Positions 38,491 through 48,713 are shown, numbered from the stretch's first letter. The stretch is DNA of 64,000 nt from an uncultured Aliarcobacter sp. (GCA_963664305.2 CAXXLV010000002.1:928001-992000), one strand, 5' to 3'. Notes: generated from the sequence alone by a model not told the origin. Numbers and translations: made by a program.

Positions 38491-38627
38491 AATAAGCTCC
38501 TTTCAGAAAAATCTTTTTATACGTTAATTATACAACAAATTCTTATTTTTTTTCAAAAAATTTATTTATTAAGTTTATTTTGATATTATTAGTTACAAAT
38601 TATATCAATTAAAAAAAGGAGTCCTGC

Positions 38628-38687
38628 TTGGAAGATAATTCCCCGAGGCAAAGTTTAGTTAAAAGTGAGAAAAAATGGAAATTTTAA
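38628..38687 (+). CDS. Putative leader peptide (19 aa, MEDNSPRQSLVKSEKKWKF) overlapping the CNNM gene start
   Basis: AAGGAG RBS, TTG 38628, TAA 38687; different frame from the CNNM ATG at 38675. Confidence 0.6.
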   Translation: MEDNSPRQSLVKSEKKWKF

Positions 38688-39730
38688 TCTTACTATTTGT
38701 TGCTGTTATTGGTACATCATTTTTATGTTCTATATTAGAATCTATTCTTTTATCTACAAATGTTTCTTACATCTCTGTTTTAGAAAAAAACAATCCTTTT
38801 GCTGGAAAACTGTTAAAAAAACTAAAAACTGACATTGATAAATCTATTGCATCAATTCTTATTTTAAATACTATTGCTAATACATTAGGTGCAACTCTTA
38901 TTGGAGTTCAAGCTCAAAATGTATTTGAAGAAGATGGTACATTAGTTATGGTTGTTTCAATTGTATTAACATTTATGATTCTATTTTTTGCAGAAATTAT
39001 TCCAAAAACAATTGGAGCAGTTTATTGGAAACAATTAGCTCCTTATGCACCAAGAATTATAAACTTTTTTATTTTTATAACTTATCCAATAATCATTGTA
39101 ACTCAATTTGTTACAAAAAAAATTGGTAAAGAAACAAGTGAAGCTAGTTCAAGAGAAGAGTTAATTCACTCTACACTTTTAAGTGAAGAAGAAGGTATTA
39201 TTGGAGATATGGAATCTCAAATTATTGAAAATACTCTGAAACTAAATAGTATAAAACTAAAAGATATACTTACTCCTCGTTCTGTTGTTTTTGCAATTGA
39301 AAAAAATACATTAATAAAAGACATAGTTGAAGACAAAAGAACTTTTAAATTTTCAAGAGTTCCAGTTTATGAAGGAACTATTGATAACATAGTTGGAATT
39401 GTTTTAACTAAAAAAATATTCAAACAAGCAATAACTGAGGGTGAAAAAAATCTTGAAGATATAATGAAACCTGTTTTTTCATTACATGCAAATATTCATG
39501 TTGCAAAAGCTTTAAATATGTTCATTCAAAAAAAAGAACATATGTTTATAGTTCATGATTCATATAATCAAACAGAAGGTATTGTTACATTAGAAGATTG
39601 TCTTGAAACTCTACTTGGTTTAGAAATTATGGATGAATTAGATACAACTGCTGACATGAGAAAACTTGCACTTAACAAAATGAAAGCAAAAAGAAAAGAG
39701 AAAGAAAAAAATTTAGAAAATATTAAATAA
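38675..39730 (+). CDS. CNNM/CorB-family (DUF21 + CBS pair) Mg2+/Co2+ transporter, paralog 1
   Basis: SFLCSILES; ILILNTIANT; EIIPKTIG; TPRS; FSRVPVY; GIVTLED. Confidence 0.92.
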   Translation: MEILILLFVAVIGTSFLCSILESILLSTNVSYISVLEKNNPFAGKLLKKLKTDIDKSIASILILNTIANTLGATLIGVQAQNVFEEDGTLVMVVSIVLTFMILFFAEIIPKTIGAVYWKQLAPYAPRIINFFIFITYPIIIVTQFVTKKIGKETSEASSREELIHSTLLSEEEGIIGDMESQIIENTLKLNSIKLKDILTPRSVVFAIEKNTLIKDIVEDKRTFKFSRVPVYEGTIDNIVGIVLTKKIFKQAITEGEKNLEDIMKPVFSLHANIHVAKALNMFIQKKEHMFIVHDSYNQTEGIVTLEDCLETLLGLEIMDELDTTADMRKLALNKMKAKRKEKEKNLENIK

Positions 39731-46389: not shown

Positions 46390-47475
46390 TTAGGCTTGTT
46401 TCTTCAAGTCTAATTTTTTCTCTATTCTTTTTTTATCTATAAGCATTTTATTTTGGATTTTACATCTATTTTTTGCAAGAACTTGCATATCTTCAACTTC
46501 ATCCATTTCATCAACAATTTCAACTCCTAAAAGTGTTTCAATTGCATCTTCTAAAGTTACAACTCCACTTGTTTGTCCATAATTGTCTTCAACTATAAAT
46601 AGATGTGTTTTTCTATTTATAAATTGGTCAATTAATGCAGAAACAGGAAGATTTTCAGAGATTTTATGAACAGGAACCATTATATCCCTAATAATTGTGT
46701 CATCTCTTTCTTCAACACTCTCTTCTAAAATAGTTTGATTAAATACAATTCCTACAACATCATCAATAGTTTCATCAAAAACAGGAATTCTTGAATGAAC
46801 ATACATCTTGTCATCTTCAATAGCATCTTCAACTTTTATAGTTGATTTAAGTGCAAAAACAACACTTCTTGGAGTCATAATATCTTGAGTTTTGATATTC
46901 TTTAATTTGAAAAGATTTTCAATCAATGCACTCTCTTTTGAAAGAATAGAACCCTCTTTTTCTCCCATAGTAACAGCAGCCATAATTTCATCTCTTGAGA
47001 AGTTTGACTCTTTTTCTTTTCCTTTTGATATTAAATTAGTTATAAACATAGATAACCAAACTAATGGATATGTTATTTTAATAAAAAAGCTAATTAAATA
47101 AGCAGAAGGAATTAATAGTTTTTTCCAATAAACTGCACCTATTGTTTTTGGAATAATTTCTGAAAAATATAAAATTGCCAATGTTAATAAAACTGCAATA
47201 ATAGTTTCCATTTCTTGACCAAAAAGTATTTGAGCTTGCGCTCCAACACCAGCAGCACCCATTGTATGTGCAAATGTATTTAATATTAAAATAGAAGATA
47301 TTGGTTTATCAATATTTGATTTTAAATCTTTTAACATTTCAATAGCTGAGGAATTTTCTTTTTTAGATAATGATTCAATATATGAAGATGTACTTGAAAG
47401 TAAAACAGCTTCTAAGACTGAACATAAAAAAGAGACAAATAAAGCAACAAGAAGATAAGTAAACAAAAGGGTCAT
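46390..47475 (-). CDS. CNNM/CorB-family (DUF21 + CBS pair) Mg2+/Co2+ transporter, paralog 2
   Basis: SFLCSVLEA; ILILNTFAHT; SEIIPKTIG; MTPRS; HSRIPV; GVVTLED. Confidence 0.92.
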   Translation of the reverse strand: MTLLFTYLLVALFVSFLCSVLEAVLLSSTSSYIESLSKKENSSAIEMLKDLKSNIDKPISSILILNTFAHTMGAAGVGAQAQILFGQEMETIIAVLLTLAILYFSEIIPKTIGAVYWKKLLIPSAYLISFFIKITYPLVWLSMFITNLISKGKEKESNFSRDEIMAAVTMGEKEGSILSKESALIENLFKLKNIKTQDIMTPRSVVFALKSTIKVEDAIEDDKMYVHSRIPVFDETIDDVVGIVFNQTILEESVEERDDTIIRDIMVPVHKISENLPVSALIDQFINRKTHLFIVEDNYGQTSGVVTLEDAIETLLGVEIVDEMDEVEDMQVLAKNRCKIQNKMLIDKKRIEKKLDLKKQA

Positions 47476-47537
47476 TTTTCACCCTCTAAATAAGAAATAA
47501 ATAAGCCACACCTACGATAGGAGTCGTTTAAGTTCAT
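47472..47537 (-). CDS. Putative leader peptide (21 aa, MNLNDSYRRCGLFISYLEGEK) coupled to the CNNM start
   Basis: AAGGA RBS 8 nt before ATG 47537; TGA stop overlaps the CNNM ATG (ATGA). Confidence 0.65.
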   Translation of the reverse strand: MNLNDSYRRCGLFISYLEGEK

Positions 47538-47582
47538 AAAGTTAATCCTTTTAAAATTTTTAGGAAGGATTATACCATACTT

Positions 47583-48713
47583 TTATTTTATTAGAGAGAT
47601 ATTGTTCTGTATATGTTTTATATCGCCTATTGTTAAATGATGTTTTTCTTCTAAAATTTTCATAAAAAACCTAACTTCTGCATTTGTAAAACCATCAAGT
47701 TCTTTGTCTTTCATAGAAACATTGTTTTCTTCAAGTCTTACTCTTTTTAGTTTTCCATTCATCTCTTTTACATAATAAACAATATCAAGTTCTGTTTGAT
47801 TTACTTTTTCAATAGTTGTAATAATTCTGTCTGTTTTAACTTTTAAGTCAAAATCACTATATAACTCTAAAAACTCTTTTGTAGTTAAATATCCTATATA
47901 AAGTTTTGTATATATATCAAAATAAAGACCTAATTTGGCAGATGAAAAAAACTTTAAATCAACACTAAATTTTGGATTTTGTCTTGAAGTATTTAAAATC
48001 CATTCTAAAGTTGGAAAATACTGGAACTTTTTGTATTTTATTTTACAAGCTTCAATATATTTTTTATTTTTTGGTACTTCTAAAGTTTGAACATCATTTT
48101 TTACTTTTTTTGCAAAAATTATCTTTTCAATTAAATCTTCATCATCTAAATCTTTAGTTACCCAAATAGTTGCGTATGAAGGAAAGTTTTTAAGCCCAAC
48201 AGAACCTTCTGTTACAACGATTAAAGCTTTAATATTTAGACTTGGGAAAATCATCTTTAATAAAGCATATTTTTTTACTAATCTTTTATTTAAACTAGCT
48301 GTTTTTTTAGATGTACTCATCTCAACAAAATAAACACTATCTTTTGTAAAAAATAGAGCATCAAACTCACTTATATCTTTGTAAGCTGATTTGTAAACGA
48401 TTTGAGAACTGCTATCTATTAAAAGTCCACTTTTTATAAAAAGATTTTCTTTATCTTGATATGGACCTTTTAAAACAAATCTAGTAATTTCTTCTTGTTC
48501 TAAAACATATTGAAGTAGTAATTCATATATGATATTTTCATAAATTTCACCTTTGAAACTACTATAAGCTGAAATGTATGAAATATCTTCTTTTGAGGTA
48601 TTGTTTTTTACTAAAGCTTTTAAGCTTTTATTATCGTATGAATAATGGAAAAGGTTCTCTTTTATATCTTCTATTTCTAATTGTTTTATTTTATCTGTAA
48701 TTGTAAATTGCAA
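47583..48713 (-). CDS. Hypothetical protein with PD-(D/E)xK nuclease-like motifs
   Basis: KGEIYE...SEFDALF...YFVEMS. Confidence 0.55.
   Translation of the reverse strand: MQFTITDKIKQLEIEDIKENLFHYSYDNKSLKALVKNNTSKEDISYISAYSSFKGEIYENIIYELLLQYVLEQEEITRFVLKGPYQDKENLFIKSGLLIDSSSQIVYKSAYKDISEFDALFFTKDSVYFVEMSTSKKTASLNKRLVKKYALLKMIFPSLNIKALIVVTEGSVGLKNFPSYATIWVTKDLDDEDLIEKIIFAKKVKNDVQTLEVPKNKKYIEACKIKYKKFQYFPTLEWILNTSRQNPKFSVDLKFFSSAKLGLYFDIYTKLYIGYLTTKEFLELYSDFDLKVKTDRIITTIEKVNQTELDIVYYVKEMNGKLKRVRLEENNVSMKDKELDGFTNAEVRFFMKILEEKHHLTIGDIKHIQNNISLIK

Follow-up and report, generated by a model that had tools for sequence, protein, structure and literature searches.

We describe a short leader open reading frame (ORF) that precedes and overlaps the gene of a CNNM-CBS transporter in an uncultured Aliarcobacter sp. 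The locus lies on the minus strand of a stretch of 64,000 nucleotides (nt) (GCA_963664305.2 CAXXLV010000002.1:928001-992000; hereafter the window), and all positions are counted from the first letter of this window. Conservation of the leader and folding of the transporter start region make it highly probable that translation of the leader is coupled to translation of the transporter through a hairpin. A further reading, drawn by analogy with known leaders, is that this coupling would work as a switch, with Mg2+ as the signal and Mg2+-dependent early drop-off of ribosomes as the means; its probability is put at about one half. The elements concerned are as follows.

47546..47550, minus strand: Shine-Dalgarno (SD) sequence AAGGA of the leader, with a spacer of 8 nt
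47472..47537, minus strand: leader ORF of 21 codons in ATGA overlap with the transporter; frame and overlap are conserved
47508..47534, minus strand: putative sensor segment, leader codons 2-10 (small residues, Asp5, then genome-rare codons)
47466..47487, minus strand: predicted hairpin of 7 base pairs, AGAGGGT (47487-47481) with ACCCTTT (47472-47466), ATG in the loop, SD-like sequence hidden
46390..47475, minus strand: short CNNM-CBS transporter of 361 residues (PF01595 and PF00571), paralog 2

The leader, MNLNDSYRRCGLFISYLEGEK, runs from ATG at 47537 to TGA at 47474-47472, and this TGA overlaps the transporter ATG at 47475 as ATGA. A preliminary description of the locus had reported the 21-residue ORF together with its AAGGA, its start at 47537, the ATGA coupling and the codons GAC TCC TAT CGT AGG. 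All of these are present, on the minus strand, which had been left unstated.

Orthologous loci were collected by a search of 151 genomes of the family, which gave matches in 141; 130 of the 236 matches were taken, and one was dropped for want of a clear start. Named genomes and metagenomes contributed 74 and 79 further loci; 18 of these were incomplete or lacked a clear start and were not kept. Together with a second CNNM gene of the window (paralog 1, see below), the set comprises 265 loci. These were divided into P2 (at least 66% identity to paralog 2; 146 loci), P2c (58-65%; 16 loci), P1 (at least 60% identity to paralog 1; 81 loci) and P3 (the rest; 22 loci), the 66% boundary between P2 and P2c being chosen after the data were seen. 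Because some loci are duplicated across sources, counts of distinct leaders are given (97 for P2, 77 for P1). In a protein tree of 139 thinned rows, the leaderless P2c proteins form one clade (support of 99 in the Shimodaira-Hasegawa-like approximate likelihood ratio test), and P3 rows from Campylobacterales form another.

All 146 P2 loci carry an SD-led ORF that ends at the transporter start; an SD-like word was required, and is present in every one of them. Of the distinct P2 leaders, 96 of 97 stop at +1, and their starts lie 38, 50, 53, 59, 62, 65, 68 or 74 nt away, all in one phase; the remaining leader ends 8 nt early. The hosts belong to four families of Campylobacterales (Arcobacteraceae, Sulfurimonadaceae, Sulfurovaceae and Sulfurospirillaceae), the genome of the window being assigned to the first of these by its named relatives. 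Since P2 loci sit behind unrelated upstream genes, the leader appears to travel with the transporter. In P1, a leader is found at 80 of 81 loci; all 77 distinct leaders begin with TTG; 73 of them share the phase, and the other four stop 3-6 nt before the transporter start. Leader length ranges from 13 to 25 residues. The preliminary description had named frame-disrupting indels or stops in orthologous leaders as the observation that would speak against it; none occurs in 96 of the 97 distinct P2 leaders.

The ratio of non-synonymous to synonymous differences (pN/pS) in P2 leaders is 0.18 at codons 2-8 and 0.80 thereafter (55 nearest-neighbour pairs), suggesting that codons 2-8 matter as protein and that the rest is a stop-free spacer for read-through. 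Read in the two alternative frames, P2 leaders are open in just 10 and 3 of the 97 cases; the leader frame is open by the way the ORFs were chosen, and the non-circular result is that every P2 locus had such an ORF.

It might be supposed that an ORF of this kind is a chance product of an A+T-rich leader. Stand-alone, SD-led short ORFs ending at the start do indeed precede about 1% of the SD-start genes of this genome (14 of 1424), and an ATGA-type coupled short ORF is found at two of the 1424, one of them being the leader at 47537. Against this background, retention in 146/146 P2 and 80/81 P1 orthologs, with eight length classes in one phase, effectively refutes a chance origin. The preliminary description had argued against chance from the presence of leaders on two nearby paralogs. 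Two paralogs are not independent evidence, and closeness of the paralogs is not general: they are far apart in genomes G034, G079 and G097.

The hairpin over the transporter start, absent from the preliminary description, has a predicted energy of -8.8 kcal/mol; among 1424 start regions in the genome, 0.6% fold at least as stably. Mean energies of start regions are -7.05 kcal/mol in P2 (-6.55 in the 35 P2 loci under 30% G+C) and -5.56 in P1, as against -1.51 in P2c, where the leader is lost, -3.31 in P3, which never had one, and -2.21 in the genome. Native sequences fold better than chimeras in 86/105 P2 and 59/76 P1 cases (6/11 and 9/22 in the leaderless groups), and better than synonymous variants in 86/105 and 57/76 (leaderless groups, 3/11 and 8/22). 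The wobble base of Thr2 tracks its upstream partner, 30 of 50 cases lying on the diagonal (permutation mean 16, maximum 26 in 20000), a figure inflated by kinship. The pairing register slides between subclades, and all support for the hairpin comes from register-free tests. Within the leader, the E-G-E-K codons contribute an A-rich spacer and the 5' half of the stem that covers the transporter ribosome site. An E-K pair before the transporter start, to which importance had been attached earlier, recurs in just 2/97 P2 and 2/77 P1 leaders.

Folding was repeated with a ribosome placed on the leader as a constraint. With the ribosome at codons 5-12, the SD zone of the transporter stays paired (unpaired probability 0.02-0.05), and at codon 14 this probability rises to 0.77. 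As the SD is opened only by a late ribosome, the model favours completion of the leader turning the transporter on.

The P2c clade has a long branch. In 8 of its 11 distinct regions it is the upstream gene that ends on ATGA, its tail being like the last codons of the leader, and the hairpin has gone from the clade. At loci L020, L021 and L023-L029, leader and promoter have apparently been deleted, which would have fused a homolog of the ORF at 48713-47583 to the last codons of the leader.

Further, we examined the residues and codons of the putative sensor segment. Residues 2-7 of P2 leaders are small: compared with 1425 genes, their median volume is at the 2nd percentile. Lys is nearly absent from positions 2-7 (0.03 vs 0.90 in genes), and at least one Asp or Glu occurs in residues 2-10 of 96% of P2 and 100% of P1 leaders vs 58% of genes. 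The window leader lies at the 16th percentile of residue volume and has one Asp and no Pro.

The leader is also marked by rare codons. In the genome, TCC makes up 0.7% of Ser codons, and CGT and AGG make up 4.0% and 3.8% of Arg codons. In-frame AGG occurs in 70/97 P2 and 53/77 P1 leaders, and the AGA:AGG ratio in adjacent genes is 534:42 (P2) and 569:51 (P1). Among P2 leaders with AGG, this codon lies 38 nt before the transporter start in 50/70 and 35-41 nt before it in 66/70; counted from the leader start, the distance is 15, 21 or 24 nt in 69/70. The AGG of the window, at 47513-47511, is placed 38 nt before the transporter ATG. Leaders without AGG carry Pro (24/27 in P2, 23/24 in P1, which reflects few clades), and these Pro-type leaders include EPD, DPD and DPEP forms, near the EPDP of MgtL. 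Cys is present in 70/97 P2 leaders, and Arg and Cys interchange after AGG. No fixed pairing partner was found for AGG, its pairing mass being 0.38 local, 0.29 downstream and 0.11 near the transporter start.

In the genome minus 8 kb, ARAGORN reported no Arg-CCT, Arg-ACG/GCG, Ser-GGA or Pro-GGG tRNA, and likewise no Gly-GCC, Ala-GGC or Val-GAC tRNA, which makes this a minimal set; a 76-nt candidate for Ser-GGA emerges only at a lowered threshold. Given these absences, a single U34 tRNA would serve each four-codon box, and the leader codons would need wobble reading.

The regulated gene is probably a Mg2+ exporter, as judged from protein sequence. Its best PDB matches are 7m1u/7m1t and 7cfk, labelled 'hemolysin', which we take to be MtCorB and TpCorC. 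Residues S15, S19, N66 and E106 agree in motif and spacing with the Mg2+ ligands S43, S47, N90 and E130 of TpCorC, and the S-S-E part of the pattern is present in 141/146 P2 proteins. TpCorC is a Na+-dependent Mg2+ exporter in which these four residues are the ligands, and its Asn94 has been linked to Na+ sensitivity (PMC7875539). By spacing, the Asn94 position is taken by His70 in paralog 2; it is His in 137/140 parsed P2 and 22/22 P3 proteins and Asn in 81/81 P1 proteins. What sets the paralogs apart may be the coupling ion, not the signal of their leaders. Pfam reported no CorC_HlyC domain in paralog 2, and the NCBIfam matches of the transporter (GldE, PaeA, CorC) are all below cutoff. When 41 of 76 flanking ORFs were scanned, the genes next to paralog 2 proved to have no relation to Mg2+, and the one MgtE stands beside a leaderless gene resembling paralog 1. 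In the genome of the window, the two corA genes (L347, L348) lie inside operons and have no leader ORF, mgtE was not found, and bL31 is encoded.

Paralog 1 and paralog 2 are the only PF01595 genes found in the genome; their starts are 8.8 kb apart and their proteins 47% identical. At the paralog-1 locus the following features are present.

38616..38687, plus strand: paralog-1 leader, with SD AAGGAG at 38616-38621, TTG at 38628, 19 codons and TAA ending at 38687
38664..38694, plus strand: predicted hairpin covering the start of the paralog-1 transporter, -7.6 kcal/mol
38675..39730, plus strand: short CNNM-CBS transporter of 351 residues (Pfam), paralog 1

The paralog-1 leader has the same -1 frame as the paralog-2 leader, but its stop is situated 10 nt inside the transporter gene. 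The earlier claim of one leader design on both paralogs holds insofar as each has a conserved coupled leader ORF; the stop of the paralog-1 leader is not at ATGA. The [ND]-S-x-R stretch that was thought to unite the two leaders is found in 21/97 P2 and 15/77 P1 leaders. What P1 and P2 leaders do have in common is AGG-YGY-x-TTA (TTA at +3 in 32/70 P2 and 32/53 P1 AGG leaders), which suggests common descent of the leaders. The proposal that the two leaders are tuned to different signals finds no support; the common D..AGG-YGY-x-TTA points to one mechanism. In many P1 leaders, the GGA right after TTG can pair with a UCC 7-10 nt further on, either a Ser codon or spanning Tyr-Pro, and form a small stem beside the leader start (by eye; 38628-38642 in the window, where it is also seen in the fold).

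The leader was initially ascribed to CNNM transporters as a family-wide system of upstream ORFs (uORFs). This is too broad, since the leader is found in 0/22 P3 loci, which make up a third clade of short CNNM genes, in 0/16 P2c loci (as a dedicated ORF) and in 0/4 paralog-1-like genes of another family. Three of the leaderless paralog-1-like genes (L286, L288, L289) have TTG starts and lie directly behind mgtE, an importer-exporter pair in one apparent operon; mgtE is verified by Pfam next to L288 and assigned by similar 3' ends at L286 and L289. In other families, five more short CNNM genes were inspected: L290 and L291 have a leader, that of L291 with DPEP, and L295, L345 and L346 have none. 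Tandem short CNNM pairs, with no evident leader, occur in five genomes of another family (L297-L301). Outside Campylobacterota, four short-CNNM loci (L200, L201, L318, L319) show no evident leader, a sample too small to judge.

Long CNNM genes, of about 430-480 codons, prevail in the two families of Campylobacterales that were sampled most. Out of 32 (L302-L313, L325-L344), taken from other Campylobacterales and from members of the same genus, 30 could be parsed; each of these has an SD and a TTG start, after which D/E-P/S segments follow in frame. Among their 20 distinct N-termini, Asp or Glu is at position 2 in 17, Pro at position 3 in 14, and Lys at positions 2-7 in none. These segments, for example MDPD, MDPSE and MDSYP, lie 7-20 codons upstream of the first ATG that annotators might pick. 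One of them, the in-frame MDSYPIFM of L335, resembles the out-of-frame P1 leader MDSYPPIFML of L065. Judging by such likeness, the leader may be a former N-terminus of the transporter that was split off by a frame change. We tentatively extend this to the CNNM exporters of Campylobacterales as a whole, which might share one ribosome-based Mg2+ sensor, in the long form as a fused N-terminus and in the short form as a split, coupled leader; in most split leaders Pro would have given way to a wobble-read AGG about 38 nt from the start, a new, codon-based trigger of Mg2+-dependent drop-off.

How these elements might act together can be outlined as follows. Sequence and conservation establish the entry point, an SD-led ORF whose frame and overlap are fixed, with selection on codons 2-8 and no stop in the codons after them. 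The hairpin is predicted to block direct initiation on the transporter; a ribosome pausing at codons 5-12 would leave it shut, and one at codon 14 or later would open it. Ribosomes terminating at ATGA would then re-initiate on the transporter. By analogy with MgtL and YbeX, a short nascent chain made of Asp and small residues, with Pro or the slow codons AGG, CGT and TCC coming next, would render early elongation fragile. High Mg2+ would stabilise the ribosome, so that the leader is completed and export is on, and low Mg2+ would lead to drop-off in the first codons. A slow codon that prolongs the fragile state would reconcile the single Asp with the conservation of AGG. The leader peptide itself is probably a by-product. 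If all this is true, the exporter is made only once ribosomes pass the hard first codons, and export is tied to plentiful Mg2+.

Several observations weigh against this Mg2+ switch or against parts of it. The strict criterion of intrinsic ribosome destabilization (IRD) is at least 4 D/E/P in the six residues after Met, as given in bioRxiv 2021.02.02.429294. The window leader has 1, its Asp being the one acidic residue among the first ten, and at least 4 D/E/P in residues 2-7 are found in just 8/97 P2 and 2/77 P1 leaders. AGG is kept at codon level (70 AGG to 2 AGA in P2 leaders) and extends to AGGYG in 66/70 P2 AGG leaders, which an amino-acid mechanism alone leaves unexplained. P1 leaders have no N-terminal excess of constraint, pN/pS being 0.54 and 0.53 for early and later codons (36 pairs). 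As for the hairpin, the register-free tests count related sequences as independent. Consensus folding of ungapped start regions (67 and 59 sequences) gave no structure and no fixed register, and the window hairpin shows no fixed-column covariation in 49 of those 67 sequences (473/500 shuffles score as high). The joint loss of leader and hairpin in P2c is one event on the tree. Finally, the substrate is assigned by homology, and the NCBIfam matches include the polyamine exporter PaeA, below cutoff.

All evidence for coupling also fits constitutive coupling, whereby the leader merely feeds ribosomes to a hairpin-blocked start and its awkward codons cap the dose of exporter in the absence of any signal; an overmade exporter would drain Mg2+. 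Such a cap would agree with the weak TTG start, which is invariant in 77/77 P1 leaders and 30/30 long CNNM genes, and with the clade in which the leader was swapped for direct coupling to an ordinary upstream gene (8/11 regions). Coupled uORFs with no known signal are, moreover, common according to PMC13285730. However, a weaker SD or promoter would be a simpler limit of dose, and the selected Asp and small residues, the alternation of Pro and AGG and the 38-nt spacing of AGG would be left unexplained; we consider this explanation possible but unlikely. We give less credit to a leader that senses decoding capacity, that is, tRNAs for AGG, CGY, TCC and TGY (arginine, cysteine, wobble-uridine modification, polyamines), and gates a cation or polyamine exporter. 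Conservation of AGG, TCC and CCC at codon level would suit it, as would the lack of matching tRNAs in the ARAGORN search with its consequence of wobble reading, the Cys in 70/97 P2 leaders and the weak PaeA match. Yet early AGG is missing from 27/97 P2 and 24/77 P1 leaders, which have Pro or acidic residues instead, and Arg and Cys swap after AGG. Amino-acid attenuators, besides, usually have longer runs of one codon type.

A switch at RNA level, or one turned on by stalling, is rated as improbable. Here AGGYG would act as an internal SD-like element of pausing or pairing, or the hairpin as a weak terminator, and the paused ribosome would set expression. AGGYG is indeed present in 66/70 P2 and 35/53 P1 AGG leaders, a scanner rates the hairpin as terminator-like (1 found, 0.1 expected), and mgtQ is a precedent for translation control in which abortion means on (PMC8092293). 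But AGG has no consistent partner, the U-tract is interrupted, and Rfam gives no match in the window; in the folding model the SD stays shut while a ribosome sits at codons 5-12, and the stop-start overlap would need no conservation. That the peptide acts in trans, for example by binding the transporter, is highly improbable: the purifying selection at codons 2-8 agrees with it, but a length of 13-25 residues, a near-neutral C-terminal half, the lack of a family match and the strict position in cis all speak against it. A programmed frameshift joining leader and transporter was also considered and dropped, no slippery run being conserved in Sulfurospirillum-type leaders (by eye).

Two further features of the locus deserve mention.

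47569..47577, minus strand: predicted extended -10 promoter TGgTATAAT, read from the sequence
47511..47521, minus strand: small hairpin CCTA-TCG-TAGG of the preliminary description

The extended -10 at 47577-47569 suggests a transcript start near 47562, with the leader as the first ORF on the mRNA. It is not listed by the promoter scanner, which demands a -35. A loose TGnTAnnnT-type pattern is found within 60 nt upstream of 82/97 paralog-2 leaders, in 51 of these at 30-33 nt from the start, as a count without a null. The CCTA-TCG-TAGG hairpin is present at 47521-47511 and does fold, but no better than shuffled sequences (z -0.46; 51/200 fold as well), and it is not conserved, CCTA-nnn-TAGG occurring in 16/97 P2 and 0/77 P1 leaders. 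Rfam gave 0 matches at gathering threshold across the whole 64-kb window. Searched by BLAST against their own genome, the two leader regions have no second copy better than E 0.019 among the matches listed. Upstream of the leader lies an ORF of 376 residues (47583-48713, minus strand), which has no Pfam or NCBIfam match and homologs of which precede paralog 2 in several relatives. Among RNA contigs, all from relatives, one metatranscriptome contig covers 46702-47544 and so bridges leader and gene; it comes from a single study, its strand and start are not readable, and it is not used as evidence.

In the sources cited here, the leader peptides that have been worked out control importers, and for exporters the YbeX N-terminus and YoaL are proposals. 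The present locus offers a cassette of 62 nt from which clear predictions follow, and nature supplies about 170 variants, among them a deletion of the leader, Pro-for-AGG swaps and, in long CNNM genes, the in-frame form. Two questions can be put to the test here: does the stability of the ribosome govern efflux, and can a slowly read codon replace a cluster of acidic residues and Pro? No published account of these leaders was found, although the supplements of PMC8632094, PMC11109978, PMC11955535 and the bioRxiv papers could list such a uORF; in an intergenic survey of Arcobacter (PMC6429828), the text and 11 readable supplements contain no DUF21, CBS or CNNM term.

Of the known systems, MgtL, the leader of mgtA in E. 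coli and Salmonella, is likewise a short leader of a Mg2+ transporter with acidic residues and Pro after Met, and relatives of our leader have EPD, DPD and DPEP. In E. coli, translation of MgtL breaks off within MEPDPT, and does so more when Mg2+ is low; this abortion is promoted by small residues and counteracted by bulky ones (bioRxiv 2021.02.02.429294). However, MgtL controls an importer via Rho-dependent termination 140 nt upstream of the gene, completion meaning off, whereas the leader described here overlaps the start of a probable exporter, completion is predicted to mean on, and the window version lacks Pro, having one Asp and the rare codon AGG. The Asp/Ser-rich start of E. coli YbeX/CorC aborts translation in the same way and has been proposed to raise efflux at high Mg2+ (bioRxiv 2021.02.02.429294). 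This N-terminal IRD segment also places Asp and small residues at the very start and gates a Mg2+ efflux factor of the CorC family, and a segment of this kind stands in frame in the long CNNM genes of Campylobacterales; in YbeX, though, it is part of the protein, whereas here it is a separate, hairpin-coupled ORF with fewer acidic residues.

The small ORFs mgtQ (Salmonella mgtC-mgtB) and corL (leader of corA) also set expression of Mg2+ transporters by translation efficiency and RNA folding. mgtQ has Asp2, Glu5 and a stem that hides the ribosome-binding site (PMC8092293), and corL starts with UUG (PMC11552253). In contrast to our leader, they control importers, poor translation raises expression, and they act through alternative stems or Rho and have no stop-start overlap. 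YoaL, which precedes yoaE/mgpA in E. coli and Salmonella, is an overlapping leader of an exporter for excess Mg2+ with a CorC domain, and it ends 10 nt into the gene in the -1 frame, which is precisely the arrangement of the paralog-1 leader. Loss of the YoaL start strongly lowers yoaE-lacZ (bioRxiv 511675). PMC12421838, which describes induction of mgpA at high Mg2+, itself calls the role of YoaL in the Mg2+ response untested. Unlike our leader, YoaL has 52 residues and an Arg/His-rich start, with no sequence likeness, and the membrane domain of YoaE is TerC, not CNNM. By analogy, the leader of paralog 2 would combine sensing of the MgtL/YbeX kind with wiring of the YoaL kind; it is a member of neither family.

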